DNA of 64,000 nt, from positions 42,333-106,332 of the IMG/VR virus record IMGVR_UViG_3300033074_001909; one strand, written 5' to 3'. The notes under the pieces were generated by a model, which saw only the letters and a list, made by a program, of their open reading frames with translations, had not been told where the DNA came from and searched no databases. This DNA comes from a virus (lineage: Duplodnaviria; Caudoviricetes). Positions 5,898-64,000 of this stretch are shown here, one piece after another. Positions within the stretch are counted from its first letter, which is position 1; every line of letters starts with the position of its first letter. Position numbers and translations under genes: made by a program.

Positions 5898-5984
5898 CGA
5901 AATTTCGCCGTTGTTCTAAACAAAGTGGACTACCAATAGCGGCACTTCGATCAGAAGCCCGTCGAGCAATCGGCGGGCTTTTTT
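5894..5984 (+). promoter_or_regulatory. Promoter + conserved motif + intrinsic terminator (attenuation/antitermination module)
   Basis: TTGACG-17 nt-TAAACA; GGCACTTCGATCAGA at 5941-5955; hairpin GCCCGTCGA-GCAA-TCGGCGGGC then T6; near-identical module at 50182-50278. Confidence 0.75.
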
Positions 5985-6002
5985 CGTTTCTTGAGGGAGC
6001 GT

Positions 6003-9970: not shown

Positions 9971-10068
9971 CGAATTTGCGGTGCGGAGTAGACTGGCTGG
10001 CGAAACGGGCTCCTCGACCAGAGGCCCCGTCAGGATCAGGCAGTACCTGATTTGGACGGGGCTTTTTT
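9967..10068 (+). promoter_or_regulatory. Promoter + conserved motif + terminator
   Basis: TTGACG-16 nt-TAGACT; GGCTCCTCGACCAGA at 10008-10022; GCCCCGTC...GACGGGGC then T6. Confidence 0.65.
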
Positions 10069-22559: not shown

Positions 22560-22573
22560 TTGGCTCCGCATTC

Positions 22574-22628
22574 GTTGAATGCCCGCGCAGTGGCTTCGTT
22601 GCTGCGAGTACAGGTCGACCCACGCCTT
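22574..22628 (+). CRISPR. Solitary Cas12m-type repeat + 20-nt guide-length segment (plus strand)
   Basis: GTTGAATGCCCGCGCAGTGGCTTCGTTGCTGCGAG at 22574-22608 (stem CGCAGT/GCTGCG kept), then TACAGGTCGACCCACGCCTT. Confidence 0.75.
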
Positions 22629-22808
22629 TGGGCAAGAGCCAAGCCTCTGCGCGGGCACTTCGACCGGTTGGGACGAGTTCTGCGCAGCCCAAATCCGGAA
22701 CGCTCGCAGAAACAAAGCCCCTGCGCGGGCACTTCGACTTGTCGACAACCTGGATCCGGTCGAGCACCGGCTCTCGCAGGAACAAAGCCCCTACGCGGGC
22801 ATCATCGC
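22629..22808 (-). CRISPR. Orphan mini-array: 3 repeats, 2 spacers (34 and 38 nt)
   Basis: Repeats at 22773-22808, 22703-22738 and 22629-22664 are reverse complements of the main-array repeat, e.g. GTCGAAGTGCCCGCGCAGGGGCTTTGTTTCTGCGAG. Confidence 0.9.
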
Positions 22809-25559: not shown

Positions 25560-25604
25560 GGCACCTCGTTCCGAGGCCCGGGAGTCACTCCTTGGGCCTT
25601 TTTT
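25560..25604 (+). terminator. Conserved motif + intrinsic terminator ahead of the portal gene
   Basis: GGCACCTCGTTCCGA, then GGCCCGGGAG...CCTTGGGCC and T6. Confidence 0.65.
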
Positions 25605-25614
25605 GTTGGGAAAG

Positions 25615-43900: not shown

Positions 43901-46044
43901 AGCTTCGCAAGATGAGCGCCGACTTGGATCGCAAGGCCGACGAAGCGAAACTCCATCCCCGGATTGAGTTCGCGCGGCAGCAACTTGCCGCCTCTCAGTC
44001 GGCCGCCGAGCAGTTAGCGCAGCAGAAGGCCGAGGCCGGTGGCGCCTTGGCGCCCGAAGTCGACCCGGACACGGGAAAATCGATCAGCCGTCGCGCCTAC
44101 CTGGCCAAGCAGCGCGCGGCCGGCCGGGCCGTCCAGCAGGGGAAGGGGGTCAGTCCCCGCACGCCGCTGGGGCGCGCCATCATTGCGGCGGTGGGCGATG
44201 ACCCGGTCGAACAGCAGCATTTCGGTGAAGTCCTGAAAGAGATCCACGCCAACGACATCGACGCCGTGCGGAACCGGAACGACGCCATCAAGGAAACGCT
44301 GGCGAATTTTGGGTTCATGGGCCGGGATGCCGGAAAATTCCTGCAGGCGATCCGCAAGTACGAAGATGCGGACCAGTTCCTGCGCAAGAGTCCGCTGGGT
44401 AACAAATTCGACCAGATGACAGAGTACGCCCTGACGCACTTTGGCGAAGTATTGGACGTGGCGCACACTCGCACTCACGACGACCCGGAAAGCGCGTTCT
44501 TCGAGACGCTTCAGCGAGGCCTGAAACGCGTGCCCGAGCCGCACGATGACGAGGTGGTGTCGAAAGCCCTGGAGTATTACCTGTCCAGTCTGGAGTCATC
44601 GCGCGCCCACGAAGAGCGATTGAAAACCGATCCCGCGTACCGAGAAGAAATGGCCGCGATTGAGCGAGGCGATTACACATTCTCGCGGCAGGGCGCTAAG
44701 ATCCGGTACGCCCGCTGGGCGCGGCAGAGACTCAGCCGGTGGTATCGGTATGCCCGTCAGTTGTCGCTGTTTGATGATCCGGGCGGACTGCAGTCCGCAA
44801 CCAAGCCGAAGCCGAAAGGCAAGCAGAAAGGCCTGTTCGACGAAGACGACCACCCACGGGCCACGGAACACGTCGAGATCAAGGGGAAATCCTACGAGGG
44901 CGGTCAGTGGATTCCCAAGGACGAAGCGGCGCAGGCCAGCCCCGCAGCGGCGGAGAAAATTGAAGTCGTCGACCAGGACACGGGTCAAGCCCAGCCGCTG
45001 GACGAAGTGGAAGAACAGCCGTCGGAATCGCCCGGCGCAGAGCCGGCCTCGGCAGATCCAGAACCTTTCGAGTTCAAGACAGCCGCCCAAGCGGCGCAGG
45101 AGGGAATGTCTTTCGCATCATGGCAGCAGCCGATTACAGACGCCTATCGTCATGAGCGGATCGACGAGGATCATCCAGCCTGGCAAGCAGTCTTAAACGC
45201 CCCCAATGTGTCGGACTACAACGACGCCAGGCACGTGTTTGGCAAGCATGTCCTCGCGCATGCCGGCCAGCAGGAGGTCTTTGGCACGGTCACGGCGCTA
45301 TCCGACGACCTGCAATCCGGCACGATCACGATGCCCGACGGCAGAGAGGCCAAGCACTTCATTTCCAACATGAACGACCTGGGGCCGTTCCTGCAGGATC
45401 GCTTGAAGCGGTACATTGCTACGAAGGGGCTCGACGAAACGCGCGAGGCGCTGGCCCGTAGCGAAGCAGCCAAGTATTTGGCGGGTGTGATGGCCCAAGA
45501 GGCATTCCAGAAGCAGACCAACATCGGCGAGGTGATCAAGGCGCACGGGTTCGGCCTGAAGGAAGGTATGGCGATCCGGAGCATGGTCGCGGATGAGTTC
45601 ATGAAGTTGCAAGAGGCAGCCAAGCCCCAAGCGAGCGACGCGCGCAAGCGAGCTCAAGAGAAGCGGCGGCAAACCGACGAAGCGGCGGAGAAGAAGCCAG
45701 ACGACACCGCGACATCCGCCGGCAACTACGAGGGCATCCTGCAGGAATCCGCCCCCTACGAAGAGTACGGCGACAACTACAATCGGAACATCGCAGCCTC
45801 AGCTAATCGGCTGCGCGACGCGATGGAGCGAGGGCACGATGCCAAGATGCTGGATCACTTGGCATCCGAACTGCGCACCCGGATCGACGTGCATGGGAAG
45901 AAGCCACAAGGTGGCGGTGAGGCCGAACGAGGCGACAAGCCAGACGCAGCAGGAGCAGCAGCCGAAGTCCAGGATCCAGAGCAGCCAGCCGCCGAGGCCG
46001 TCGCCAGCGATCAAGAATCCAAGATGGTGATCATCGACAAGTAG
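40975..46044 (+). CDS. Large polyvalent protein (HPR motifs, MutS-I-like, GNAT, ParB-like domains)
   Basis: RBS GGAGG; 'EDKHPRDEDGQF'; 'LVRHGGKFHAF..LIENGHRVAV'; 'SRGQGV..WGPLGF'; 'PPISV..NRRRVLAA'. Confidence 0.7.
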   Translation: MATGFADRYAAEFEEDKHPRDEDGQFTLKVSKIHGPKGEKFENLGGKQQDLFAFRGEKGQMNLFSDAGVPDELLPKHIRKGKPDTYAKDEDPPDSGPQWMTLGGGARALVAEDGTILQGCEGVKGYDLDELDETRDERAAKQEQAEDAGWTSAKSDRARETWEAFKNSDPTHPHFIGLVRHGGKFHAFDESAGKLQEQLGIGDGQTAEFDEDKLPHHMERLIENGHRVAVIDRAEDGTPDLDSDADPEAQQAVAEAHEDVAEQQETKPAAAGFGIEPVHPERLKLTQDGREIGYMNLRVMGDRGYIDDTSIHAASRGQGVMRQLWPQIEQHFRDQGATSIRADVVDPAVGEKVWGPLGFQKEGMSGPVEVYRKHLDSPAADSEQATDKPPSTKRGRLPSTDDPAHHAVAQRFGIPPETVKEILETHPDELSRRDNYFPPNSQRDEVVGPTLDYEPHPLGSAKIDSSQHKAGETDNAYVDFLTEFDPQQLKLSEPEDGMSKSQSVAAYADWIKAGMEPPPISVFDSANGNGNLVSTNRRRVLAAQQAGADKIVGWHGKNNPETGLPLKLGDIKRAYEEAKGQGAAASESDQQEQTPADTAGEADDWNAATQSPAEATDDQLARAIEFASHLHGHHQRNAQSGQITPEQLTSLHDMIDGHVATMQAELERRKHAQDQPADRGNAAASPGGTDDASATGAETRPTSGTAAADPGPTGSLGTRHHDAGQRIAQAPGPVRSLLESLHRLRDTRKTGQVETKELGHEYAREMYDHLKSLRHAGDDFGEVHDLSQELGHGAIGYASPAGNVAMVPPKFKGQDWQVRYTLPHESQQAPAATPADAPSEPAGQGDELELLDDVMEGDAYEGDLPASDAGGGFPWEDAGQDEPPTAPSQQPAYSDAWRDLHAQHQDLVYRTIPHREQQYRQAVSQAQRDQQRFAAKAAEYQSQADQLESVTPRDPAHAVRMKSDRPYAEARRRIDKLRKMSADLDRKADEAKLHPRIEFARQQLAASQSAAEQLAQQKAEAGGALAPEVDPDTGKSISRRAYLAKQRAAGRAVQQGKGVSPRTPLGRAIIAAVGDDPVEQQHFGEVLKEIHANDIDAVRNRNDAIKETLANFGFMGRDAGKFLQAIRKYEDADQFLRKSPLGNKFDQMTEYALTHFGEVLDVAHTRTHDDPESAFFETLQRGLKRVPEPHDDEVVSKALEYYLSSLESSRAHEERLKTDPAYREEMAAIERGDYTFSRQGAKIRYARWARQRLSRWYRYARQLSLFDDPGGLQSATKPKPKGKQKGLFDEDDHPRATEHVEIKGKSYEGGQWIPKDEAAQASPAAAEKIEVVDQDTGQAQPLDEVEEQPSESPGAEPASADPEPFEFKTAAQAAQEGMSFASWQQPITDAYRHERIDEDHPAWQAVLNAPNVSDYNDARHVFGKHVLAHAGQQEVFGTVTALSDDLQSGTITMPDGREAKHFISNMNDLGPFLQDRLKRYIATKGLDETREALARSEAAKYLAGVMAQEAFQKQTNIGEVIKAHGFGLKEGMAIRSMVADEFMKLQEAAKPQASDARKRAQEKRRQTDEAAEKKPDDTATSAGNYEGILQESAPYEEYGDNYNRNIAASANRLRDAMERGHDAKMLDHLASELRTRIDVHGKKPQGGGEAERGDKPDAAGAAAEVQDPEQPAAEAVASDQESKMVIIDK

Positions 46045-46119
46045 TAGACGGTTTATCCGGGATGTGCGACACTTTCCACGCCCGCCAGTATCGCGGCCAG
46101 CCCTTGAACGGAATCATTC

Positions 46120-46521
46120 ATGCCACGTGCCAGCGCTCCCAGTCTTGCCCAGGCCCAGGTGGTGACCGCCGATCTGGTGACCACCTTGCGTGACTTGCTC
46201 CCCGTGTTGCTCCAGAGCCCCCGCGCCTGGGCCATCCGCTATCAGGTGAGAATCCGTAACGGCACCGTGGACCGCCGCAATTCCAAAATCTGGGACGATT
46301 CCCTGGATGATGTACCTTTTCGCGACGGCGAAGACGTGGACGTGGCCATGCAGCGCATCGAGGGCATGTTTCTCAAATTCCTGCCGCGGTATCTGGGCAA
46401 TGGCACCAACGGGGAAGCAGAGATCCTTGTGACGATCAAGGACAAGCGGGTAGCGTTTGCCACGGCCCTGGAGCGGCAACGGCTGTTCACGTGGAAGGCG
46501 GACGGCACGAGTGCCACGTAG
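46120..46521 (+). CDS. Hypothetical protein upstream of the type IV-B operon
   Basis: ORF ends 8 nt before csf1. Confidence 0.5.
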   Translation: MPRASAPSLAQAQVVTADLVTTLRDLLPVLLQSPRAWAIRYQVRIRNGTVDRRNSKIWDDSLDDVPFRDGEDVDVAMQRIEGMFLKFLPRYLGNGTNGEAEILVTIKDKRVAFATALERQRLFTWKADGTSAT

Positions 46522-46529
46522 GACGTTAA

Positions 46530-47279
46530 ATGACCGCCCCGCAATTATTTGCCAGCTACTGGCCCGAGGGACCGCATCGCTGCTACTACTGCGGCGGGCG
46601 ATGCGACGAGACGCATCGAGCTGCTGATCTGGTCCAGTCGTCGTTTACCGCACGTGATACCGTGGCTGGCGGTGAGTACGTGTGCCCTGGCTGCATCGCT
46701 GCGATGGACGAGAGGGCCACGATTACGCTGGCCGACGGCGAAGTGCGCGAAGGCCAGCGGGTCCGCTGCTACTCCTGGGTCATCACTGCCGAAGCGGCGA
46801 TCGCTGCCACCAAAGCTCATCGCGCGTGGCTGACAGGAGCGTGCCTGTCGCCTCCAGAACCGCCCTACGTCATCTCGATCAGCGACAGCGGGCAACGGCA
46901 CCTGCTGTATCGTGCCGTCGTATGCCATTCTCGCGAGATCATTACCGCCACTCTGGAGGGCGAGCGGGTAACATTCACACCCTATGAGCTTGACGAGCGG
47001 TTGACGCTGTGTCGCAAACTGATCGCGGCAACCGGCAAGCCGGCTCTGTCCGAAGCACCGACTGCACGATTCGGCATGTCGGTAGTCTCGCATCACGACG
47101 ACGAATCACTGATCTCCACGTGGCTGGAATGTCGCGAGCAACCGCTGTCTCGCCTGGCGGCGTGGCTCTCGCCTCCCAAGGAGGAATGCTTACTTGAGTT
47201 CCCAGCACCAGCAGCTCCCGCCCCCACTGCCTGTGCTCGACACCGAGCAGTTCAGGCAACGTTTAGCTGGCTTGATTGA
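46530..47279 (+). CDS. csf1: Type IV CRISPR Csf1 (Cas8-like large subunit)
   Basis: CxxC...CxxC zinc finger; 'PPEPPYVISISDSGQRHLLY'; operon context. Confidence 0.8.
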   Translation: MTAPQLFASYWPEGPHRCYYCGGRCDETHRAADLVQSSFTARDTVAGGEYVCPGCIAAMDERATITLADGEVREGQRVRCYSWVITAEAAIAATKAHRAWLTGACLSPPEPPYVISISDSGQRHLLYRAVVCHSREIITATLEGERVTFTPYELDERLTLCRKLIAATGKPALSEAPTARFGMSVVSHHDDESLISTWLECREQPLSRLAAWLSPPKEECLLEFPAPAAPAPTACARHRAVQATFSWLD

Positions 47280-47667
47280 CCAGCGATCCGAAGTGGACGC
47301 CGAAGATTTCGCCAGCGTGGCGGCGTGCGCTATCCATTTTGTCTCGTCGCTGCCGATTGTGTTCGGCGAGCAGCTCGAGCGCACCACACTGTGGGATAAG
47401 ATCGGCGCCGCCCTGGATACCGCTTACGCCAAGACCGCCGCCGATGATTGCGACTTCTTTATCAGTCGCGTGCTGGAGTCGATCCTGGCTTCTCCGGCGG
47501 CCGTCGCTCGCTGTGAGGCCATCGGCCAGGTGATAACGTGGCTCTCCGCTGCGCCGACTGAGATGCGGCACGCGTGGCTGCAGTACATCGCCACGCACCG
47601 CTATGCCGTGCTCGTACGCGCTCGCATGGCCTGGGAGCAGCAGAAGGAGGCTCGCGCCAATGCCTGA
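47194..47667 (+). CDS. cas11: Type IV-B small subunit (Cas11-like)
   Basis: Small helical protein between csf1 and csf2; RBS AAGGAGG. Confidence 0.6.
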   Translation: MSSQHQQLPPPLPVLDTEQFRQRLAGLIDQRSEVDAEDFASVAACAIHFVSSLPIVFGEQLERTTLWDKIGAALDTAYAKTAADDCDFFISRVLESILASPAAVARCEAIGQVITWLSAAPTEMRHAWLQYIATHRYAVLVRARMAWEQQKEARANA

Positions 47668-48544
47668 GACCTATACGATCCTCTGCGTGAGTGAAGCCGC
47701 CTCGCCAATCACGCACATGAGCGGCAGCGCCGGCAATGAGGCGATTATCGCTCGTGCGCCCGTGATGACGGATCGCGGGAAACTGTGGATACCATACCTC
47801 TCAGGTAATGCCCTGCGCCACCGTTGCGTGCGAGATCCAGGCGTGGATTTCCTTTTGGATCTTTACGAACTGCGAGGCAAACTTACACTGCCGCAGCTCA
47901 ATTTCCTGCGGCACGGCGGAAATCTCACGGAGTCCACCGCACACGAGAACACGGCCCGCATCGCCGAGATGAAACGCACTTGGCCGCTACTGCGATTGCT
48001 GGGTGGCTCGTTGCCAAACCAGATCCTGGCCGGCAGCCTGCAAGTCTGGCGTGGTGAACTGGTGTGCGAGGAAAACCGCCAATACCTGGCCACGCTCGGA
48101 GACTGGCTGCCCACGCGGCGACTCAAGGCTGCCGAGGAGTTCATCGGGAACTACCAGTACACGCGCGGCGATGCCGCGAAGTCCGGCGAGGCTCAGGCGG
48201 AGGAGGATCGCGAGAGCAATCTGATGATCTTCGCTGGCCAGCAGGTCAATCGTGGCTCGCTGTTTGTGCATGGCTTCGTGGCGCCTCACGCGTCGCGCGT
48301 CGAACTGGGCGCGCTGCTGCTGTCGCTCCGACTCTGGCAGTCCCGCGGCGGGACGATCGGCGGACAAGCGGCGCGCGGCCACGGCCGGCTGGCGATGTCC
48401 CTGGTCGGTGCGATCGACCAGTCGTGTGTGGACGAGTACGTCGAGTACGCGATCAGCGTGCGAGATGCGGCGATCGCGTGGCTTGAGGACTGCTTTGCGA
48501 AGCGAGCCGACAAGCCAGCGAAGACAAAGAAGGTGAAGGCATGA
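47660..48544 (+). CDS. csf2: Type IV CRISPR Csf2 (Cas7-like RAMP)
   Basis: 'SPITH', 'PYLSGNALRH', 'LRLLGG', 'IGGQAARGHG'; RBS AAGGAGG. Confidence 0.85.
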   Translation: MPETYTILCVSEAASPITHMSGSAGNEAIIARAPVMTDRGKLWIPYLSGNALRHRCVRDPGVDFLLDLYELRGKLTLPQLNFLRHGGNLTESTAHENTARIAEMKRTWPLLRLLGGSLPNQILAGSLQVWRGELVCEENRQYLATLGDWLPTRRLKAAEEFIGNYQYTRGDAAKSGEAQAEEDRESNLMIFAGQQVNRGSLFVHGFVAPHASRVELGALLLSLRLWQSRGGTIGGQAARGHGRLAMSLVGAIDQSCVDEYVEYAISVRDAAIAWLEDCFAKRADKPAKTKKVKA

Positions 48545-49206
48545 GCCTGCTCGTGATCGCGCACCTATCGTCGCCGCTGGCCGGTGATGCGCCGATGCTG
48601 GACGGACTGCTCGAGTTCGAGATGTCGCAGAGACTCGGTGCGGCGTATAAGGTCCGCCGCGATCAGCCTGCACCGCCCGCCGGAGCGATCCATATTCCGA
48701 TGCTGCGGCGCGGTATCGGCGGTTGGAGTGTTCCGCTCTGCTCGTCACCGATCTACACCGCCGAGAGTGATCGGCATGAGTACATCGGCAAGCGGCTGGC
48801 GGTCGAGCACGCCAGTGATTTACGCGAGGATGCACGGCTGGTCGTGGCGATGGGCAACGCGACCTACAAGTCATATCGCCTACCGCTGCGAGTGAGGAAT
48901 GTGTCACGCGTGGCGTGGTTCTGCGAGGGGCATCGATCGCCGATTTTGAAGCTGCTCAAATCGGTACACGCGATCGGCCGGAAGCGGTCAGATGGATACG
49001 GTCGCGTGGCGCGATGGACTGGCGAGAACGTGGATGGCAATCATCACTGGTACGGCGAGAGCGAGCACGGCCCGGTGCTCATGCGACCGCTGCCGTTTGG
49101 CGACTGGCTGCCGCGCAGCCTGCTCGGCGCGAAGCGAGATTTCGGTGCGGTCGTCGCGCCGTACTGGCATCCTGATCGCTATGCGGAGATTGTGGTGCCA
49201 TGCTGA
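48541..49206 (+). CDS. csf3: Type IV CRISPR Csf3 (Cas5-like RAMP)
   Basis: 'LDGLL', 'IGRKRSDGYGRV', 'MRPLP', 'PYWH'. Confidence 0.85.
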   Translation: MSLLVIAHLSSPLAGDAPMLDGLLEFEMSQRLGAAYKVRRDQPAPPAGAIHIPMLRRGIGGWSVPLCSSPIYTAESDRHEYIGKRLAVEHASDLREDARLVVAMGNATYKSYRLPLRVRNVSRVAWFCEGHRSPILKLLKSVHAIGRKRSDGYGRVARWTGENVDGNHHWYGESEHGPVLMRPLPFGDWLPRSLLGAKRDFGAVVAPYWHPDRYAEIVVPC

Positions 49207-49931
49207 TTCGCACTGCTCGCCACACGGCCGCAGACCTGGCATTGTGGGAGTCGCTCGAGGACGCCGACATTCTGAGGCAGGACGTGGCCGCCTATCGCGC
49301 ACGGTACGCTGAGGCGCTGCACGCGATCGCCGCGTTTACATCCGCAGGCGAGTGCTACGCCGGCATCAGTTGGGGGAAGGACTCTACCGTGCTGGCTCAT
49401 CTGATCCAGTGCGTCGCGCCTGACACGCCACTAGCCTGGACGCGAGTAGAACCGATCGCCAATCCAGACTGTGTGCTCGTGCGAGATGCGTTCCTGCGAT
49501 TGCATCCGCACGCGAACTATCACGAGATCACGGAGTGGTGTGAGTGGCGCGATGGAGAGTGGCACGCCACTGGCACGCTCGAAAGCGGCATCGCCAAGTG
49601 CCGAGAACGATGGGGAGAGCGGACGATACTCGGTATTCGAGCCGAGGAGAGCACCCAGCGTGGGTTCCGCATTTGGCGCCACGGACTATCGACGGATCGG
49701 TCGTGTGATCCACTGGGACGCTGGCGCATCGAGGACGTGATGACCTGCCTGGCAATCGAGGGACTGCCGGTGCATCCGGCTTACGCCATGCTGGGAGGCG
49801 GGCGCTGGCCGCGAGAGCAACTGCGGGTCTCGTCGCTCGGCGGTCGTCGCGGCGATGGCCTCGGGCGAGCAGAGTGGGAGCGCGAGTATTACGGCGATGT
49901 GGTGCGACGGCTGGCCATGACGGACACCTGA
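49200..49931 (+). CDS. PAPS-reductase (CysH)-like protein of the type IV-B system
   Basis: PP-loop 'SWGKDS', 'GIRAEES..R', 'PLGRW...DV', 'LPVHPAY'. Confidence 0.85.
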   Translation: MLIRTARHTAADLALWESLEDADILRQDVAAYRARYAEALHAIAAFTSAGECYAGISWGKDSTVLAHLIQCVAPDTPLAWTRVEPIANPDCVLVRDAFLRLHPHANYHEITEWCEWRDGEWHATGTLESGIAKCRERWGERTILGIRAEESTQRGFRIWRHGLSTDRSCDPLGRWRIEDVMTCLAIEGLPVHPAYAMLGGGRWPREQLRVSSLGGRRGDGLGRAEWEREYYGDVVRRLAMTDT

Positions 49932-49936
49932 ACGTA

Positions 49937-50161
49937 TTAATTGCGGCGATACTGCGTGGATTCGCGCGACGCTTCCACCAGGTCGATCAGGTGATTGACC
50001 AGTTCGGTGAGCATCTCATTCCGCCGCAAATCCGCAATCCGCTCCATGCGTTTATCGGCCGGCAAGGCCAGCAGCCCGTCCAGGCAGGACTGGCAGAGCG
50101 GAATCGGCGAGGCCGACGGAGCCAGTTCACACAGACACGATTGGCAGAGGTGACTTAGCAT
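49937..50161 (-). CDS. Small zinc-finger protein
   Basis: Two CxxC pairs followed by a helix; divergent from the late promoter. Confidence 0.45.
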   Translation of the reverse strand: MLSHLCQSCLCELAPSASPIPLCQSCLDGLLALPADKRMERIADLRRNEMLTELVNHLIDLVEASRESTQYRRN

Positions 50162-50181
50162 GGATTTGCGTCGGCGGTGTC

Positions 50182-50278
50182 TTGACGAAATTTCGCCGTT
50201 ATTCTAAATAACATACTCGCGACCAGAAATTGCGGTACTTCGAACAGAAGCCCGTCGGGAAACCGGCGGGCTTTTTTT
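50182..50278 (+). promoter_or_regulatory. Promoter + conserved motif + terminator (paralog of 5894-5984)
   Basis: TTGACG-17 nt-TAAATA; GGTACTTCGAACAGA; GCCCGTCGG-GAAA-CCGGCGGGC then T7. Confidence 0.75.
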
Positions 50279-50300
50279 GTTTCTTGAGGGAGTATTGGTT

Positions 50301-50576
50301 ATGGCTGACCCGGTAGTTCGAGACGGATTCGAAATCTCCGGCTCCACCGCGCGGCGCAACCAGCAATCCAACGCTCCCGTCGGATTTGAATATTACGACA
50401 CGACCGTCCGCAAGCTGTTCGTGATGGGCCCGCGCGGCTGGGAGCACGTCGGAACCGAAGAGGAGCAGTCCAGTAGTTCCTCCTCGTCGTCGTCCTCGTC
50501 GTCGCTGTCCAGCCAATCCAGTAGCTCCCTCAGTTCGCAGAGTTCTTCTTCGAGTAGCTCGAGTTCCCAAAGCTAA
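50301..50576 (+). CDS. Small protein with poly-Ser tail (paralog 1)
   Basis: VVRDGFEISGSTARRN..APVG..YYDT domain followed by a Ser tract. Confidence 0.7.
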   Translation: MADPVVRDGFEISGSTARRNQQSNAPVGFEYYDTTVRKLFVMGPRGWEHVGTEEEQSSSSSSSSSSSSLSSQSSSSLSSQSSSSSSSSSQS

Positions 50577-50590
50577 GGCACGGTTGACCC

Positions 50591-50791
50591 ATGGTAGTTC
50601 GAGACGGATTCGAAATCTCCGGCTCCACCGCGCGGCGCAACCTAATGTCCAACGCGCCGGTCGGACACCGGTATTACGACACCGACCACCGGCACCTGTA
50701 CGTGATGGGACCAGCCGGTTGGGAACGCGTCGCCGAGGAAGAGCAGTCGAGTTCCAGCAGTTCCAGTTCGTCCAGCAGTTCGTCGAGTTGA
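50591..50791 (+). CDS. Small protein with poly-Ser tail (paralog 2)
   Basis: Tandem duplicate; 50 bp identical at the 5' end (50312-50361 vs 50593-50642). Confidence 0.7.
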   Translation: MVVRDGFEISGSTARRNLMSNAPVGHRYYDTDHRHLYVMGPAGWERVAEEEQSSSSSSSSSSSSSS

Positions 50792-50801
50792 TTTTAGCTG
50801 C

Positions 50802-52511
50802 ATGAACACCGTCACGCCAATGCGACCGAAGCGCACGCGGGGGAACCCCACCGAGGACGGCGAGTTCGTGGTCTTCGAGCACGTGCCGATCTTCGATGAG
50901 CACGAGGGTGATGACGGCGTGGTGTACGACGAACGGCTGCTGCGGGCCATTGCCGACAACTGCAACCGCCGCATCCAGACCACCGGCGACTGGTGCCCGG
51001 CCGTGGTAGCGCACACCCGCGACCGCGAGGACAAGGCCACCGTCGATGACGATCCCCAGGTGATCGGGCTGTGCGGTCCGTTCTACGTGGCGGACTTCAC
51101 GAATGGCGATGGACGGCAGGTTAAAGCGATTCACTGCCACTTTTGGATCTTCCCCGAGGAAGAGAAGACCTTCCTGCGAAACCCGCGCCGCAGCGTGGAA
51201 ATCTGGCCCGAGGAGCGTCCGGAAGACCGGTATTTCGATCCCATCGCCTTGCTGGGCGCGGAAACGCCCAAGCGCGACCTGGGCATGATCTACAGCCGCC
51301 GGCGACCGGGCCGCGAGCCATCTCGGCGGTGCATGGCGGGGCCGCTGCGATACGCGAAGCGTTCGACGAAGCCGCTGCGGTACGAGGAAGGCGGCGGGGT
51401 CGCCAGCACCCCGGGCGGGAACAATACGTTCATTCCGGGGGCCGTCGAGATCCCCAAGAAGAAGAAACCACTTCAGCACGCGAAAGGATCATCGCCCATG
51501 GCGCTATCACCGGATGATATCAGCCAAATCGTCGAAGCCCTGCGGCCGACGATTGAATCGATTGTCGATGAGCGGATGGGGCCGGCGGACCTGGGCAATG
51601 ACGCCGATCTTGGCGCAGCCCCCGACTTGGGTGGCGCTCCGGACATGGGTGGCGCGGATCTGGGTGGTGCCCCGGGCGGCGACATGGACGACGTGCCGAA
51701 CTACGACGACATGGACGAGGAGTCGAAGCTCTACAGCCGCGGACTGGGCCGCAAATACATGCGGTACAAGAAGGACGAGGGCTGGGATGAGGACGGCGAG
51801 TCGTCGTTCATGGCCACGCTCGACGACGACGACAAGGGGAAACTCGGGTCGTACATGAAGTACATGTGCGACGACGATGACTCGAAGAAGCGGTATGCCG
51901 AGCGGTATGCCAAGAGCCCCATCGGCGGCACGGACCTCACCGAGTCGGGCCCGATGGCCACCGGCGAAATGAAAGACGGCGAGCCCACGCGTTACGGGAA
52001 GGGGATGCCCATGAATTACCAGAAGTTGCGTCAGGAACGCGACGAAGCCGCGGCCAAGTATTCCAAACTGAACCGCGAGCACCAGGAACTGAAGCAGAAG
52101 TACGCCAAGCAGGAAGGCGAACTGGCGACCGTCCGCCAGAAGGAACGCTATTCCCGCCGGCTGTCGCAACTCAAGGATCTCGAGCCGGAGTACGCGTTCG
52201 ACGCCGAAGAGGAAATGTCCCTCACCGAGGATTTTTCCGACGACCAGTTCACGCGGCACCTGGATGTGATCAAGACGCGGTACGCCAAGGTTAGCGGCCA
52301 GACGATGCCCACCGAGCGGGAGCGGCCCTTACCATCGCCCGCCCAGGAAAAGCAGCAGCGGTACGCCAAGCAGGCCACGGATCTGGTGCAGCGCTACCGC
52401 AAGGCAGGCCGCAGCATTGATTACGGCAAGCTGCTGGATCACCTGATCGAGAATCACGGCCAGGTGAACGAAGACAAACTGTTCCAGTCCAACGGCCACG
52501 CGGCCGCCTGA
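50802..52511 (+). CDS. Prohead protease/scaffold protein
   Basis: Upstream of decoration and capsid genes; 'VVAH', 'RRSVE', 'IALLGAETP' (Mu-type protease pattern); acidic and coiled-coil C-terminus. Confidence 0.7.
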   Translation: MNTVTPMRPKRTRGNPTEDGEFVVFEHVPIFDEHEGDDGVVYDERLLRAIADNCNRRIQTTGDWCPAVVAHTRDREDKATVDDDPQVIGLCGPFYVADFTNGDGRQVKAIHCHFWIFPEEEKTFLRNPRRSVEIWPEERPEDRYFDPIALLGAETPKRDLGMIYSRRRPGREPSRRCMAGPLRYAKRSTKPLRYEEGGGVASTPGGNNTFIPGAVEIPKKKKPLQHAKGSSPMALSPDDISQIVEALRPTIESIVDERMGPADLGNDADLGAAPDLGGAPDMGGADLGGAPGGDMDDVPNYDDMDEESKLYSRGLGRKYMRYKKDEGWDEDGESSFMATLDDDDKGKLGSYMKYMCDDDDSKKRYAERYAKSPIGGTDLTESGPMATGEMKDGEPTRYGKGMPMNYQKLRQERDEAAAKYSKLNREHQELKQKYAKQEGELATVRQKERYSRRLSQLKDLEPEYAFDAEEEMSLTEDFSDDQFTRHLDVIKTRYAKVSGQTMPTERERPLPSPAQEKQQRYAKQATDLVQRYRKAGRSIDYGKLLDHLIENHGQVNEDKLFQSNGHAAA

Positions 52512-52565: not shown

Positions 52566-52625
52566 GGCACTCTGACATAGAGCCCGGCGCATTCCCACCA
52601 CGGGGGTGTTAGCCGGGCTTTTTTT
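52566..52625 (+). terminator. Conserved motif + intrinsic terminator ahead of the capsid genes
   Basis: GGCACTCTGACATAGA, then GCCCGGC...GCCGGGC and T7. Confidence 0.65.
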
Positions 52626-52653
52626 GTTGGACCAAGCAAGAGGAGTAAGGCAC

Positions 52654-53043
52654 ATGGATGGTCCCACGGTGCGAGCCAGCGGGAATATCAACCCTGCCCG
52701 TTTCGTCACGATCGACGGGGTGTTTTCGGTCGCGGAAAGCAACTCGGGCGACACGAAGTTGCTCGGGATCACCAACGAGAACACGCGCAACGCGCCTGAC
52801 GCAAATGGCTCGAGCTACCACGCCATCGCGGGCGAGGCGCCGACGCTCCGCCGGCCTGGGCAGTTCTGCAAGCTCAAGATCGGCTCGGGCGGCTGCACCG
52901 CCGGCGACTTCCTCAAGCCGGATAACTCGGGCCAGGGCGTGACGGCCACCACCGGCGCCGTCGCCGGAGCACAGGCCATGGAAACCGCTTCGGAAGGCGA
53001 GTTGGCGGAAGTGCAAGTCCTGTTTCCGACCTACGTGGCGTAA
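52654..53043 (+). CDS. Head decoration/cement protein
   Basis: About 129 aa, G/A-rich, 'ASGNINPARFV', 'AGDFLKPD..GQGV'; directly before the capsid gene. Confidence 0.7.
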   Translation: MDGPTVRASGNINPARFVTIDGVFSVAESNSGDTKLLGITNENTRNAPDANGSSYHAIAGEAPTLRRPGQFCKLKIGSGGCTAGDFLKPDNSGQGVTATTGAVAGAQAMETASEGELAEVQVLFPTYVA

Positions 53044-53114
53044 GTCGCACAGCGTTGTGTGCCCTTCGGTGTAACGGGGCACGAAGTGTTCACAACCATA
53101 ACGGAGTATGAGAC

Positions 53115-54155
53115 GTGCCTACATCAACACCTGCCGATCGTACCACCTACATCCCGGATCATGCCGCCAGCGGCAAGCTGGTGGTGGATTTCAGCCGGAA
53201 CCCCAAGGACTTCAAACTGGCGGAATATTGCCAGTACATCCCCACGAAGAAGACCGAAGGGCGCTACGTCAAGATGACGGTCGAGCAAGCCGGCCGCATC
53301 CGCAACACCAACCTGGCCGACTTCCTGTGGCCGGACAGCGCGGACGCTCCGAAGGGCTTCGGTAACCTGGAGACGTTCAGTTGGGAATCGTACGTCGCCA
53401 AGCGGTACGCGTTTCCCTTCACGGTCGGCGAACTGGGTGTCGAGCAGGCCTCGTGGGACGTGCTGGCCAAGCATGCTCGGGACATGGCGCAGCTCGCCAT
53501 CACGGCTCGCACGCAGGCCGTGATCACGCTGGCGACCACCTCGGGCAACTACGACGCAGCCCATACGTCGGCTGTCTCGTCGATTTCGGGCGTGACCGGC
53601 AAGTGGGACGTGTCGACGACAGCGCGCATGGATATCAAGCGGAGTTTTGACTACGCCGCTGAAACGATCCTCAAGGCCACGTTGGGCAAGGTCCGCGCGG
53701 ATCAACTGATGGTGGTTATGTCGCCGGGCTGCGCGAAGAAGATCGCGACCAGCCAGGAAATGATCGACTACATCAAGCAGTCGCCGGCCGCCAAGGAACT
53801 GCTGACCAACACGCTGTCGAGCGCCAACCGCTTCGGCATGCCGGAAATGTTTCACGGTTACAAGATCGTGATCGAGGACGCCGTGAAGGTGACCACCAAA
53901 AAGGGCGCCACCACGACTAAGTCCTACGTGCTGGGCGATGCGACGCCGTTCATGTGCTCGCGGGTGGGTGAACTTGAAGGCGTGGAAAACTCGCCGTCGT
54001 TCTCGTCCTTCAGTGTGTTCCTGAAGGAGGAAATGACGGTCGAGAGCAAGCACGACCGCGACAACCGCCGCCACGAGGGGCGGGTCGTGGATCATTACGC
54101 CGAGACTTTTACGGCGCCTTCCAGCGCGTTTTTGTTCACGGCCGCGGTCGACTAA
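53115..54155 (+). CDS. Major capsid protein
   Basis: 346 aa, position in head module, strongly biased codons, RBS GGAG. Confidence 0.75.
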   Translation: MPTSTPADRTTYIPDHAASGKLVVDFSRNPKDFKLAEYCQYIPTKKTEGRYVKMTVEQAGRIRNTNLADFLWPDSADAPKGFGNLETFSWESYVAKRYAFPFTVGELGVEQASWDVLAKHARDMAQLAITARTQAVITLATTSGNYDAAHTSAVSSISGVTGKWDVSTTARMDIKRSFDYAAETILKATLGKVRADQLMVVMSPGCAKKIATSQEMIDYIKQSPAAKELLTNTLSSANRFGMPEMFHGYKIVIEDAVKVTTKKGATTTKSYVLGDATPFMCSRVGELEGVENSPSFSSFSVFLKEEMTVESKHDRDNRRHEGRVVDHYAETFTAPSSAFLFTAAVD

Positions 54156-54178
54156 CTCGGGTAAGGGGGAGTGGTCCC

Positions 54179-54688
54179 ATGGCCGCATTTGCCACGCCCG
54201 CCGACATGATGAACCGCTACGACGTGCGCACGTTGGGCGACATCTGCGGCGACGAGGACGTGCCCATCTCCAGGGACAAGCTCCCCACGAACCCCAAGTT
54301 GACGACGGCGCTGGCGTCCGCGTCCGGGAGGATCCTGGCCGCGGCGCTGCGGGCCGGTCGGTACACCGAAACCGACCTGCAGAACCTGACCGGAGAATCC
54401 AAGGCCTACCTCGCGGATCTCACCTGCCGTTACGCGTTTTGGCTGCTGTGGCAACGCAAGCCCTACGCCGACGAGCAACAACGCAAGGAGATCAAAGAGG
54501 CGGCCAACGAGGCCTTGGAAGAAATCCGCAACGGCGATGAATGCTTCAACGTGGCGGCGGTGATCGAGGCGGGACATCCCACCGTCGAGACCGTCACCCG
54601 CATGGAAATTGAACGGGACTGGGATCTGGTGGTGGATCAGGCGCGCGGGCGTCATTACCCGCGCCGCCGATCTTACCGGCAGCAATAA
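54179..54688 (+). CDS. Head-tail adaptor (DUF1320/Mu gp36-like)
   Basis: 'FATPADM..RY', 'ALASASG.I', 'GRY', 'ALEEIRNG'. Confidence 0.7.
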   Translation: MAAFATPADMMNRYDVRTLGDICGDEDVPISRDKLPTNPKLTTALASASGRILAAALRAGRYTETDLQNLTGESKAYLADLTCRYAFWLLWQRKPYADEQQRKEIKEAANEALEEIRNGDECFNVAAVIEAGHPTVETVTRMEIERDWDLVVDQARGRHYPRRRSYRQQ

Positions 54689-59847: not shown

Positions 59848-59955
59848 CTCGCAGAAATCAAGCCTCTGCGCGGGCACTTCAACGATCCCGACCGGGAATA
59901 CGTGATGTCCGGACTTGACCTCGCAGACACAACGCCTCTGCGCTGGCATTCGCGC
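59848..59955 (-). CRISPR. Orphan mini-array: 2 repeats, 1 spacer (36 nt)
   Basis: Repeats at 59920-59955 (GCGCGAATGCCAGCGCAGAGGCGTTGTGTCTGCGAG) and 59848-59883 (GTTGAAGTGCCCGCGCAGAGGCTTGATTTCTGCGAG). Confidence 0.9.
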
Positions 59956-60148: not shown

Positions 60149-60343
60149 ATGCGCTGGACAATCCGCGATCTATTCTACGTGCTGACGATCACCGCCATGG
60201 CCATCGCCTGGACGCTGGACGCCCGACAGAACTACGGGTCACCGACCGTCGGTAAAGTGTGCGAGGAGTGCGGCAGCGATGGCAACGCCCACACCCTGCG
60301 CTGCCCCGTGATTGCTCGTCTTATTCTTCACTCGGAGAACTGA
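60149..60343 (+). CDS. Small membrane peptide of a Planctomycete-type 'R(F/W)(S/T)IRDL' family
   Basis: MRWTIRDLFYVLTITAMAIAW followed by CxxC. Confidence 0.55.
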   Translation: MRWTIRDLFYVLTITAMAIAWTLDARQNYGSPTVGKVCEECGSDGNAHTLRCPVIARLILHSEN

Positions 60344-60345
60344 TC

Positions 60346-61422
60346 ATGAAACGTCGCGCCTTTACTCTCGTCGAGCTGCTAGTGGTCATCGCCATTATCG
60401 GGGTGCTGGTCAGCTTGCTCTTGCCGGCCGTGCAGGCGGCTCGCGAAGCGGCCCGCCGTATGTCGTGCTCGAATAACCTCAAGCAGATTGGACTAGCCGT
60501 CCATAACTTCGTGTCCGCCCGCGACACCATGCCCCGCTCCGGGGAACACCTCGTGGAAGTGGGCAACGTGACCTACAAGACGCAATGCTTTCACGGCCCG
60601 CTGTTGGTGCTGCTGCCCTACCTGGAGCAGTCCGCGCTGTTCGACAAGTTCGACTTGACGGTGCGCTACAACGAGGGAGCTAACCTGGCCCTGGTGCCGC
60701 TGGGAGCCGGTGGCGCCGCCACGATCAAGGCCTACCAGTGTCCCACCAATCCCGAGCGGTGGATTACGGACAAAGAGGGATTCACGGGCACCGATTACGC
60801 GCCGCTCCCTTACGTGGAAATCAACGCTGCGGCGGCCGCGGCCACCGGCTTGCCGGCTGGCTTGCATCCGGCAGCGCTCACGTCCCACCCGTACCGGCCG
60901 GCATACTACAAGACCTACTCGGGCGCTCATCCCAGCATCAGCCCTAGCAAAGCCTTTCAACTGAAAACGTCGGCCGAGCTCGCCGCGCTGGGCAATTTCA
61001 ACATCTACTTCGGTGGCGCCACGTTCGCGGACATCACCGACGGATCGAGCAATTCCATCCTGGTGTACGAGGACACCGGCCGCAACGAAAAGATGGACGG
61101 CACAGGCAGCCCGTCGCCAAATAACTACCTGGATCCAGTCGACAATCAGCCCCGCCGGCACTGGCGGTGGGCGGAGCCCGACAGTACGAGCGGCTGTTCC
61201 AAGCAGATCAACAACAACCGCACCCCGCGGGGTGGCCCGCCCACCTGCCCTTGGACGGCACACGATTGTGGCCCCAATAACGAATGGTTTTCCTTCCATC
61301 CAGGTGGCGCGCAAGTCGCCATGGCCGATGGCTCGGTCCGCTTCGCCAGCGAAACCACGGACCTGAAAGTCGTGTTTGCTCTGGGCACCCGCAAAGGCGG
61401 AGAATCGGTGACCCTGGATTAG
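60346..61422 (+). CDS. DUF1559 prepilin-type N-terminal cleavage/methylation protein
   Basis: 'AFTLVELLVVIAIIGVLVSLLLPAVQAAREAARR..C.NNLKQIGLA', 'DGSSN', 'HPGGAQVAMADGSVRF'. Confidence 0.95.
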   Translation: MKRRAFTLVELLVVIAIIGVLVSLLLPAVQAAREAARRMSCSNNLKQIGLAVHNFVSARDTMPRSGEHLVEVGNVTYKTQCFHGPLLVLLPYLEQSALFDKFDLTVRYNEGANLALVPLGAGGAATIKAYQCPTNPERWITDKEGFTGTDYAPLPYVEINAAAAAATGLPAGLHPAALTSHPYRPAYYKTYSGAHPSISPSKAFQLKTSAELAALGNFNIYFGGATFADITDGSSNSILVYEDTGRNEKMDGTGSPSPNNYLDPVDNQPRRHWRWAEPDSTSGCSKQINNNRTPRGGPPTCPWTAHDCGPNNEWFSFHPGGAQVAMADGSVRFASETTDLKVVFALGTRKGGESVTLD

Positions 61423-61488: not shown

Positions 61489-63507
61489 ATGCCCATCGTC
61501 TACAGTTATCGCGCCAAGGTCCGGGAGCAGGATCGGCCGTTGATTATCGGGCAATTGCGAGCGGCCCATCGCTACCGCAATCGCTTGTGCGAGATCGAAT
61601 TGACGCGTCGTCAGCAGGTCGATGCGGCGTTGCGAGAAGTCTGCCCGCGCCTGCTGGAAGTGGAAGCGGAACTGGCGGCCCTCGACGGCGAATTGACCGC
61701 CGAATACGAGCGGGTCAAGAAGGCCAACGTGCAGGAGCGATCCCGCAAGCGTCCTCCCCAGGAGCAGCAGCAGCGGATCGCGGCCCTCAAGGCGCAACTC
61801 AAGGCCTTGCGAGCGGAACGCAAGACGCTGCGCACGGGTCTGTTCGGCATGTCCGAGCGAGTAGACAAATTGCGCAAGGCCGCTGCGGAATTGCATGGCA
61901 AGCCGGCGGAGACGGTAGCCACGATGCAGGGTCTGCTGTGGGAGGAGGGTTGCGACGGTTTGCGAGCGGCCCTGGCGGCGCGCCTGACAGCCGAGGCCGG
62001 CCAGAAGCGAGCGCAGGACGACGCGATCCGCGAGGAGTTGGCCAAACTTGTCGAACAGGAGAGCAACACGCCCGCCGCGGCGCGCCGCCTGGCGGAGATC
62101 GACACCGCCGCCAAGCAGGCCGCCAAGGACGCGCGACATCAAAGCGGTCTGTACTGGGGAACGTACCTGACGGTGGAGGAGGCGGCCGCGTCTTTCCGCA
62201 CGGGGGCGCCGCCGCGGTTCAAGCGATGGGAAGGACGGGGCCTGCTGGGTGTGCAATTCGTGGGCGGACTGTTGGTGGAAGATGCGTTGCGGGGTGCCAC
62301 CAAGTTTACCATCCGGGATGGCGCCAAGCCGAAGTGGCGCGAACTGCAAATGCGGATCGGCCAGCAAGAGGACGAATGTGCCACGCTGGATGTGATCTAC
62401 GATCGACCCCTGCCGGAGGATGCCACGATCAAGTGGGCCAAGCTGGCCTATCGCAAGGTGGCCAGCCAGGATCACTTCTATATCAATTTCATTCTGGATC
62501 GGCCCGGAGGGTTCCCACGGGATGATCGGGCCACGGAAGGGACGGCAGCGGTCGACATTGGCTGGCGCAGGCTGGACGACGGCAGCATTCGGGTGGCGTA
62601 CTGGATGGGCTCGGACGGCGAGGAAGGCTCGCTGGAGATCCCGGCCGGGCAGGCCCAGCGGCTACCGCGATGCGACACGCTCAATTCGGTGCGGTCGCTG
62701 CTGTTTGACGGCGCGCGGAGCGTACTGGCTCGCTGGCGAAAGATCGAGCAAGAACGCGACTCCGAACCGCCCGAGTGGCTGCGCGGGCAAGCCATGTGGT
62801 GCAAGTTCGAGATCCAAGGGGCGCCTGCCGGTCGTCAGGATCAATTGCGGCGGTGGCTGACCCATTTCCAAGGGCTGTGTGCCGCCTGGAGTGACATTCC
62901 GGCCATGCCGGAATGGCTGCAGACCTTGACCGACCACGCACACGCCTGGAAGTCGCATGGCAAGCTGGCCCAGGTAGTCTACGAGTGGCGCAATCAGCGG
63001 TTTGCGGGCGATGAGCACCTGTACGGGGTGTTTGAGGCGTGGCGGCAGCAGGACAAGCACCTGTGGGAGTGGACCGCGCATAACCGGCAGCGGTACTTAA
63101 ACTGGCGATTGGATTGCTACCGGGTGTTTGCCAGGATGCTGGCTCGGCGGTATCGCACGCTGGTGATCGAGGACGTGGATTGGCGGGCGTTTTCGGTCAG
63201 GCCGACGGCTGATGAAGCGGACGAAATGAAACTGGCCCGTGCCCGCAAGCACGTCACGGCGCCCAGCCTGCTGGAGAATTGCTTGCGGTATGCGTTCGGC
63301 GCGGCTGACACCAAGGACTTGCCAGCCAAGAACATGACGGCCACGTGCGCGGTATGCGGGGAGTTGTGCGGCGAGACCGACCGGTGGAAACTGGTGCTGG
63401 AGTGCTCGCAGTGTCGATCGAGTTTCGATCAGGACCGTAACGCGTGCCGTAACCTGTTGCGAGCGGCGGGGTGCGATGAAAAGTCCGCCAGTCTCTCGCA
63501 AGGCTGA
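61489..63507 (+). CDS. cas12m: Type V CRISPR effector, Cas12m-like (V-M, formerly V-U1)
   Basis: 'QLRAAHRYRNRL', coiled coil, 'GLYWGTY', 'RWEGRGLLGVQ', 'DRPLPEDATI', RuvC 'AVDIGWR' (D356), 'VIED' (E561), CxxC..CxxC, 'DQDRNA' (D649); adjacent array. Confidence 0.85.
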   Translation: MPIVYSYRAKVREQDRPLIIGQLRAAHRYRNRLCEIELTRRQQVDAALREVCPRLLEVEAELAALDGELTAEYERVKKANVQERSRKRPPQEQQQRIAALKAQLKALRAERKTLRTGLFGMSERVDKLRKAAAELHGKPAETVATMQGLLWEEGCDGLRAALAARLTAEAGQKRAQDDAIREELAKLVEQESNTPAAARRLAEIDTAAKQAAKDARHQSGLYWGTYLTVEEAAASFRTGAPPRFKRWEGRGLLGVQFVGGLLVEDALRGATKFTIRDGAKPKWRELQMRIGQQEDECATLDVIYDRPLPEDATIKWAKLAYRKVASQDHFYINFILDRPGGFPRDDRATEGTAAVDIGWRRLDDGSIRVAYWMGSDGEEGSLEIPAGQAQRLPRCDTLNSVRSLLFDGARSVLARWRKIEQERDSEPPEWLRGQAMWCKFEIQGAPAGRQDQLRRWLTHFQGLCAAWSDIPAMPEWLQTLTDHAHAWKSHGKLAQVVYEWRNQRFAGDEHLYGVFEAWRQQDKHLWEWTAHNRQRYLNWRLDCYRVFARMLARRYRTLVIEDVDWRAFSVRPTADEADEMKLARARKHVTAPSLLENCLRYAFGAADTKDLPAKNMTATCAVCGELCGETDRWKLVLECSQCRSSFDQDRNACRNLLRAAGCDEKSASLSQG

Positions 63508-63628: not shown

Positions 63629-64000
63629 GTTGAAGTGCCAGCGCAGAGGCGTTGTTTCTGCGAGACCGGATAATTACACATCGGTCGAGATCGAGCAGGC
63701 GGGTTGAAGTGCCCGCGCAGAGGCGTTGTTTCTGCGAGGGGTGCCGATTAGCCCATCGCTTGACCGGCCTACGGATGTTGAAGTGCCAGCGCAGAGGCTT
63801 TGTTTCTGCGAGTCGACCGTCTGGGAGGATGAGCCGCGGGGTGCCGTCGTGTTGAAGTGCCCGCGCAGAGGCTTTGTTTCTGCGAGCCTACGAGGACCTA
63901 GAGACGTACGTCGTCTCATCGACGTTGAAGTGCCCGCGCAGAGGCTTTGTTTCTGCGAGCGTTCTGGATTCGAGCAGCTGGGCGGACAGATCTTCGTGGA
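63629..64000 (+). CRISPR. CRISPR array, at least 5 repeats (36 nt) with 37-38-nt spacers, probably continuing past the window edge
   Basis: Repeats at 63629-63664, 63703-63738, 63777-63812, 63851-63886 and 63924-63959; consensus GTTGAAGTGCCCGCGCAGAGGCTTTGTTTCTGCGAG. Confidence 0.97.

Follow-up and report, generated by a model that had tools for sequence, protein, structure and literature searches.

The DNA analysed here, a window of 64,000 nucleotides, forms the 3' part of a virus record of 106,332 bp in IMG/VR (IMGVR_UViG_3300033074_001909; Duplodnaviria, Caudoviricetes), and positions are those of the window unless another record or contig is named. Five plus-strand genes in the order csf1-cas11-csf2-csf3-cysH-like occupy positions 46530-49931, each overlapping the next (by 86, 8, 4 and 7 nt, respectively), and translational coupling between them is tight. 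An earlier reading made from the letters alone (hereafter the sequence-only reading) had claimed a complete type IV-B operon at this place, with five overlapping, coupled genes and a CysH-like partner; all five genes were found at these coordinates, four of them were assigned by PADLOC, and the overlaps could be read off directly.

The first gene, csf1 (46530..47279, +, 249 aa), encodes a Cas8-like large subunit with a zinc ribbon and the C-terminal tail motif QATFSWLD. The second, cas11 (47194..47667, +, 157 aa), encodes an all-helical small subunit and opens with a TTG codon located seven bases after AAGGAGGA; by direct reading of the sequence, the 86 nt that it shares with csf1 (47194..47279, +) are a dual-frame stretch encoding both the Csf1 C-terminal tail and the Cas11 N-terminus. 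The csf2 gene for the Cas7 backbone subunit (47660..48544, +, 294 aa) starts at an ATG preceded by GAAGGAGG, and its junction with cas11 is the 8-nt overlap ATGCCTGA. The longest open reading frame (ORF) would place the csf2 start at 47603, which is less likely, since the preceding GAAGGAGG, the ATGCCTGA overlap and the onset of the PHROG match all favour 47660. The Cas5 subunit gene csf3 (48541..49206, +, 221 aa) overlaps csf2 through ATGA, and the cysH-like gene (49200..49931, +, 243 aa), whose product has a PP-loop ATP pyrophosphatase fold of the CasCysH type, overlaps csf3 through ATGCTGA.

The assignments were settled by the PADLOC Cas profiles, which matched Csf1, Cas11, Csf2 and Csf3 at near full length. 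Csf1 matched typeIV_Cas8 over nearly its full length (E 1.7e-60) and Csf1_0_IV (E 1.6e-29); its cysteines C18, C21, C52 and C55, the zinc ribbon, were invariant in 15 homologues, and several Csf1 homologues have been named 'CRISPR type IV-associated protein Csf1' by the Joint Genome Institute (JGI). Csf2 matched typeIV_Cas7 (E 3.1e-76) and phrog_22746 (E 9.6e-63), and its top match among Protein Data Bank (PDB) sequences was the Csf2 of entry 7JHY (E 2.3e-4). A large protein collection held 562 Csf2 homologues, the best 120 of them at 55-95% identity and almost none functionally named. Csf3 matched typeIV_Cas5 (E 1.7e-31), Csf3_0_IV (E 2.4e-29) and phrog_34599 (E 7.1e-27). The NCBIfam models for these three proteins also scored, all far below their own cut-offs (TIGR03114 for Csf1, E 1.2e-12, 48 bits against a cut-off of 140; TIGR03115 for Csf2, E 1.7e-5; TIGR03116 for Csf3, E 2e-6), and Pfam gave no match for the products of csf1, cas11, csf2 or csf3. 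Cas11 matched typeIV_Cas11 (E 5e-29). Its AlphaFold2 (AF2) model (predicted local distance difference test score, pLDDT, 85) had as its top structural match chain h of 7JHY, a type IV-B Cas11 (Z 10.7, root-mean-square deviation 2.9 Å, 111 residues), followed by another Cas11 at Z 5.1. The 7JHY chain was found by the wide VIA structure search alone; phmmer and profile searches of PDB sequences returned nothing relevant for Cas11, and Foldseek returned nothing. The sequence-only reading had staked its claim on hidden Markov models (HMMs) being able to assign Csf1, Csf2 and Csf3; these were run, and they assigned all three.

The fifth protein matched the PHROG family of 3'-phosphoadenosine-5'-phosphosulfate (PAPS) reductases (phrog_2302, E 2.1e-23) and weakly PF01507 (E 0.008), with no PDB match by sequence and no PADLOC model. 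Its AF2 model matched PAPS reductase, the PAPS domain of flavin adenine dinucleotide (FAD) synthase, TtuA, TilS and LarE. Among 14 homologues, S57, G59, K60, D61 and S62 of the PP-loop motif SWGKDS were invariant and W58 was present in at least 90%; R147 and E150 of the GIRAEES motif were likewise invariant. No cysteine was conserved in the same 14 homologues and there is no ECGLH-type C-terminus, that is, the catalytic cysteine is absent. CasCysH proteins have been described as keeping the PP-motif and lacking the catalytic cysteine of PAPS reductases (PMC8175902). Judged by these motif features and by its fold, the fifth protein is of the CasCysH type. Taken as partners in complex predictions, Csf1, Csf3 and the CysH-like protein scored 0.32, 0.12 and 0.00, which weighs neither way.

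The PADLOC description lines say 'CAS-IV-A'; the subtype was instead called from gene content, order and absences. We assign the cassette to subtype IV-B because Csf1, Cas11, Csf2, Csf3 and a CysH-like protein are present and DinG, RecD, Cas10, Cas6 and an adjacent array are missing from the locus, and we regard this identity as nearly certain. Domain searches found no DinG, RecD or Cas10-HD domain in the operon and its two neighbours; the genome-wide search covered DinG. Across the 106-kb genome neither Cas1, Cas6, Cas6e nor a DinG-type helicase (PF13307) was detected, and the control genomes did score, also for PF13307. The closest CRISPR repeat lies 9.9 kb from the operon. The earlier statement that the locus has no adjacent array and no cas6 thus holds, and by its gene content the cassette is without nuclease, helicase, Cas6 or adaptation genes.

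Relatives of the cassette were examined in 17 IMG/VR loci sharing the module, 11 of whose records (38-65% GC) were fetched whole. Most of the loci hold all five genes; the cysH-like gene was undetected in L002, L007, L013 and L014, and cas11 in L015. Key motifs were invariant across homologues of 30-65% identity. None of the genes flanking the cassette in the window was common to any of the 17 loci. A terminase large subunit gene lies 0.4-2.8 kb downstream of the module in 8 of the 17, and several loci carry SNF2 helicase/DNA methylase fusions upstream. In L003, L005 and L015, the space between csf3 and cysH holds a second PAPS-reductase gene, IbrA-like and with DUF3440 (PAPS_reduct+DUF3440), as well as a gene with weak similarity to ParB. 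Two of the loci without a detected cysH-like gene have a gene for a B12-binding radical S-adenosylmethionine (SAM) protein (L002:1219-2547; L014:11809-13050), placed inside the module between csf2 and csf3 or directly after the module. L010, from a complete phage of 53.6 kb (G008, IMGVR_UViG_3300044994_000102), has a Cas6e gene between csf3 and cysH (L010:11649-12161; TIGR01907, 79.7 bits, above cut-off), and L009 has a weaker Cas6e-like gene in the same position. Repeat scans of the Cas6e-bearing genomes G008 and G007 detected no array, and in G008 no repeated hairpin either. Of the 11 fully fetched relatives only one, G013 (IMGVR_UViG_3300028735_000012), carries a mini-array (G013:C1:21894-22003). 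It lies about 5.5 kb upstream of the csf1 of that phage and has a single 36-nt spacer and two identical repeats of 37 nt, whose hairpin is of the class 1 type.

The Csf1 protein ends in QATFSWLD, following a linker rich in proline and alanine. A pattern of the form Qxx[FLM]x[WLF] or [LM][FY][DG] was found within the last 12 residues in 46 of the 120 nearest Csf1 homologues, compared with 3.6% of other 12-residue windows, and 39 of 49 long-tailed homologues carry the tail motif. The tails in L010 and L018 have QLGLF- and QLLF-type forms, and that in L014 has the looser QLHLGF. Consensus motifs for binding to the bacterial beta clamp are QL[SD]LF and QLxLxL. The Csf1 tail resembles a docking peptide for the sliding clamp (DnaN), and we describe it as a putative one.

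The cassette appears to be an optional insert in this phage. In sequencing run X3, a 7.3-kb contig opens with the 30 bases ending at 46520, continues with ACTC and resumes at 49939; a second contig stops at 46520, and a third runs from 46520 into csf1. Both forms, one with and one without exactly the 3418 bp of 46521..49938, thus appear to be present in that sample. In the short form the stop codon of the 133-aa ORF upstream of csf1 becomes TAA and that of the 74-aa minus-strand ORF downstream of the operon changes from TAA to TGA, leaving both genes whole; the cassette thus sits in the few bases between two convergent genes. In runs X3, X5 and X7 the allele is a diverged one from about 48149 on. 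Among its 40 best-supported differences 29 fall at codon position 3, 26 of the 38 changed codons are synonymous, and the indels are an in-frame loss of 9 nt and two +1/-1 pairs that cancel out. Since the variation is mostly synonymous and the indels keep the frame, the cassette genes are under purifying selection. Contigs of the same three runs depart from the reference at 49922 and rejoin it at 49936, and the 3' end of cysH with the right cassette edge may be a recombination hot spot.

We propose that Csf1, Cas11, Csf2 and Csf3 would assemble a Cascade-like filament on RNA, by analogy with the solved Mycobacterium complex (PMC7937560), in which case the backbone would be made of Csf2, the minor filament of Cas11, and the foot of Csf3 together with Csf1. 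The filament would then serve as a platform bringing an ATP-dependent adenylating PP-loop enzyme, the CysH-like protein, to the bound nucleic acid, a role put forward before for type IV-B (PMC8175902). The complex would act during phage DNA replication, ahead of packaging, and the C-terminal tail of Csf1 may tether it to the replication machinery. Rather than classical adaptive immunity, the phage would likely gain counter-defence or an advantage in competing with other mobile elements. We favour the platform for an adenylating enzyme because the enzyme partners are exchangeable among relatives, the neighbours include DNA modification and replication genes, the module lies beside packaging genes, and Csf1 carries the tail motif. 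The mechanism itself is held tentatively, with somewhat less than even confidence; identity and mechanism taken together, we consider our overall account evenly poised between right and wrong.

Several points tell against this proposal. The function of the cassette is one that we infer, and type IV-B function was still called unclear in September 2026 (PMC13676074). Short-tailed Csf1 proteins make up 64 of the 113 classified homologues, and just 2 of them have the motif. QATFSWLD is only a loose match to the clamp-binding consensus motifs, and the bases encoding it also encode the conserved Cas11 motif FRQRLAGLID; part of the conservation of the tail motif may be a by-product of the csf1/cas11 overlap. 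Evidence for the variant without the cassette comes from a single run, with a flank of 30 nt and a likeness setting of 85%. Finally, Cas6e in the relative L010 hints that some members use CRISPR-type RNAs, which suits other explanations as well.

The sequence-only reading had noted candidate guide RNAs on the same element: a real array of 13 repeats and mini-arrays do exist, and nothing indicates that they belong to the type IV-B cassette. The window ends with a gene for a 672-aa Cas12m-like (V-U1) effector (61489..63507, +; PADLOC Cas12u1 E 1.2e-75, Cas12f E 2.8e-71) and, starting 122 nt past its stop codon, the main CRISPR array (63629..64000, +). The array, found by repeat scan, is built of a 36-nt repeat that carries its hairpin at the 3' end, like other type V repeats. 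It continues at the contig start (G000:C1:1-650), for a total of 13 repeats and 12 spacers. A mini-array of two repeats and one spacer with the same repeat inverted (59848..59955, -) contains the copy closest to the operon, and further copies, one on the plus strand and three on the minus strand, lie at 22573..22808. At least six degenerate copies of the repeat hairpin half (GCCCGCGCAGAGGC..TCTGCGAG) were seen upstream of the window (G000:C1:15400-15730 and 17756-17791), spaced so closely, at about 45-50 nt, that normal spacers would not fit between them; the Cas12m-like protein might bind them as decoys or as regulatory sites. None of the spacers matched the phage's own genome or the 11 related phage genomes searched, save for one partial self-match, of spacer S4 of the main array to 10006-10032 of the window (minus strand, 26/27 bases, E 2e-7).

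The V-U1 group is now type V-M, i.e. Cas12m, and characterised Cas12m proteins bind DNA without cutting it, come without adaptation genes and process their own pre-CRISPR RNA (pre-crRNA) without a partner (PMC11013384). No homologue of the Cas12m-like protein turned up in the 17 other viral records with the cassette, of which 8 have a completeness of 90% or more. Nor did a domain search reveal another Cas12 or TnpB in them; a weak TnpB-domain match in G013 belongs to an SF2 helicase that has a zinc ribbon and is no Cas12. In IMG/VR the Cas12m-like protein has only one distant relative (27% identity), and the array repeat has no exact match there. Because the main array lies directly 3' of the Cas12m-like gene, relatives of the cassette lack Cas12, and the repeat hairpin is type V-like, the arrays of this phage are best assigned to the Cas12m-like system, separate from the type IV-B cassette. 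The 'tRNA-like RNA' of the sequence-only reading turned out to be an ordinary tRNA-Arg(TCT) at 4822-4894, with no sign of a link to type IV-B.

We asked whether the cassette could instead act as a sponge for guide RNAs, the Csf filament soaking up host CRISPR RNAs (crRNAs) or small guides as an anti-CRISPR, with the CysH-like protein as an auxiliary. This hypothesis is in print (PMC7038947, PMC8175902), and the solved IV-B complex bound heterogeneous RNA (PMC7937560). The array-less L010 with its Cas6e and L009 with its weak Cas6e-like gene would fit processing of host pre-crRNA, and the cassette appears dispensable for the phage, as is usual for anti-defence genes. A sponge, however, would leave the near-invariant enzyme partner and its replacement by a radical SAM protein unexplained, so complex an anti-CRISPR was judged unlikely by Pinilla-Redondo and colleagues (PMC7038947), and Cas6 is absent from the genome of this phage; we consider a sponge unlikely.

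Use by the cassette of the phage's own guides appears more doubtful again. Here the IV-B complex would be loaded with the 36-nt-repeat crRNAs processed by Cas12m, making two nuclease-free effectors supplied from one pool, and the Csf complex would direct the adenylating CysH-like enzyme to chosen DNA or RNA sites, which we rate as equally improbable. Both systems are on one probably circular genome, which has repeat copies in both orientations in addition to the array of 13 repeats. In the inverted repeat a short GC stem can fold, and the 8 nt after it (ACTTCAAC or ACTTCGAC) have the length of a class 1 handle. Borrowing of crRNAs by type IV-B has been proposed (PMC7038947, PMC8175902), and a mini-array accompanies the type IV-B locus of a Fuxivirus (10.1101/2023.08.24.554615). 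Against shared guides stand the main array directly downstream of the Cas12m-like gene, the partner-free processing by Cas12m, the type V-like hairpin, the search of the 17 related records negative for Cas12 and TnpB, and the 9.9 kb to the closest repeat; moreover, the Mycobacterium system did not load co-expressed type I-E crRNAs (PMC8175902). That the cassette is a functionless passenger, recently acquired or decaying, would agree with the co-existence of a cassette-less variant in one sample and with flanks that differ in every relative. In contrast, the five intact frames, the mostly synonymous allele variation with frame-keeping indels, the key motifs invariant at 30-65% identity and the presence of the five genes together in most of the 17 records are not what a decaying insert would show, and we give this explanation hardly any weight. 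The platform for an adenylating enzyme remains the reading that we favour, at the tentative level given above.

The surroundings of the operon were described previously as virion head genes. The operon does lie inside the packaging/head region, with a portal fusion upstream (25603-32058) and scaffold, major head and adaptor genes downstream (52606-54688); its immediate neighbours are two small ORFs, both outside the cassette. The upstream one (46120..46521, +, 133 aa) ends 8 nt before csf1, has no family match in Pfam, NCBIfam, PHROG or PADLOC and no homologue in the 17 related loci, and is kept in the cassette-less variant. The downstream one (49937..50161, -, 74 aa) is convergent with the operon and its translation is Cys-rich (CQSC...CQSC). 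An upstream 'polyvalent protein' could not be verified under that label, the 1706-aa protein concerned showing a GNAT domain only. The portal fusion is a 2151-aa protein that combines a Mu-type portal, an inorganic pyrophosphatase, a helicase split by a LAGLIDADG/Hom_end element, and DUF5661.

The 'late head promoter' proposed downstream of the operon fails as a sigma-70 promoter, since a scan of 45500-51500 found none on the plus strand; it belongs, though, to a unit of 125 nt of which the genome has two copies. This unit (50182..50305, +), picked up by terminator scan, has a promoter-like element and then, after about 35 nt, a strong 13-bp hairpin with a T-run (50246-50275), a Shine-Dalgarno sequence and an ATG; it separates the operon, which reaches its 3' limit here, from the head genes that follow. 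A second, near-identical copy at 5894-6015 has one compensatory A-T to G-C change in the stem. The layout suggests, by analogy, late promoters under antitermination control; a promoter closely trailed by a terminator recalls the lambda PR'-tR' arrangement, from which we infer control of a similar kind. Downstream of the hairpin are two small paralogous proteins, followed by a 569-aa protein, the scaffold, the major head protein and the head-tail adaptor. The two paralogues (50302-50576 and 50591-50791), placed immediately ahead of the head genes, have a common N-terminal domain (VVRDGFEISGSTARRN...) and long serine-rich tails.

The source contig starts and ends in one array, and the spacer closing it is the spacer opening it, so that the assembly closes on itself inside the CRISPR array. 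For this reason the genome is probably complete at about 106.25 kb, and probably circular or terminally redundant, despite a CheckV completeness estimate of 75%. The cassette stretch was found in wastewater and sludge metagenomes of at least three studies; megablast of the cassette region against phage and plasmid collections gave no match. In reference genomes the Csf clade occurs in metagenome-assembled genomes (MAGs) of Phycisphaerales, Phycisphaeraceae, Planctomycetaceae, Caldilineae and Acidobacteria. In the phage itself, a DUF1559/H-X9-DG prepilin-type gene (60259-61422; PF07596, E 1.6e-49) belongs to a family typical of Planctomycetota, and this gene is a host marker possibly acquired from the host. 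Based on the occurrence of the clade in such MAGs and on the prepilin-type gene, the host is probably a member of Planctomycetota.

The cassette adds no new kind of system, being of the already described type IV-B, which has been published on prophages, lytic phages and archaeal viruses (PMC7038947; 10.1101/2023.08.24.554615). The type IV-B system of Mycobacterium sp. JS623 (7JHY; PMC7937560) has the same five genes and likewise no array, Cas6 or helicase. Similarity to it is very low (Csf2 phmmer E 2e-4; Cas11 17% identity), it resides on an actinobacterial plasmid whereas the cassette here is on a tailed phage of a probable Planctomycetota host, and Csf1 here differs in having a C-terminal tail motif encoded in the cas11 overlap. 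The type IV-B of the 'Fuxiviridae', viruses of Bathyarchaeia (10.1101/2023.08.24.554615), is also viral, with an adjacent CysH-like gene and without an adaptation module, and a role in counter-defence or between elements has been proposed for it. In the Fuxivirus, however, the mini-array adjoins the cas genes, whereas in the present phage at least 9.9 kb separate the cassette from the repeats, which accompany a Cas12m-like effector, and the host is bacterial. Type IV-A (PMC8175902, PMC11519345) has homologous Csf1, Csf2 and Csf3 and is similarly nuclease-free and borne by mobile elements, but it includes DinG, Cas6/Csf5 and an array, none of them present at the locus here, and is without Cas11 and CysH. 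In the cultured actinophage SPI1 of Skermania (KR011061.1, L062), five consecutive genes annotated 'hypothetical' (Orf40-44) match in sizes and order; Orf42 is distantly similar to Csf2 (tblastn 25% identity, E 7e-7), and the other four correspond by gene order and size only. The Cas12m-like system resembles type V-M (PMC11013384, PMC10442227) in its compact Cas12 of the V-U1 family, adjacent array and absence of adaptation genes and Cas1; it differs in being phage-borne, with extra mini-arrays and degenerate repeats scattered over the genome.

What is new here is the apparently optional nature of the cassette, the mostly synonymous allele variation, the position shortly ahead of the terminase gene in 8 of 17 relatives, the Cas6e, radical SAM or IbrA/IbrB-like partners in relatives and the conserved Csf1 tail motif. 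The apparent natural pair of phages with and without the cassette, with exact boundaries, offers a handle for work on fitness and counter-defence, and the conserved Csf1 tail motif is a testable handle for clamp binding. One genome holding both type IV-B and a self-processing Cas12m array makes the idea of crRNA borrowing testable with native parts, and if guides were shared, the phage would provide a type IV-B system that occurs in nature and whose guides can be identified. The clade to which the cassette belongs is large, mostly unannotated and linked to phages of Planctomycetota, and its Csf core pairs with varied nucleic-acid-modifying enzymes. This pairing, together with a tendency of the core to lie just ahead of the packaging genes, suggests that it acts on phage DNA or RNA at about the time of replication.

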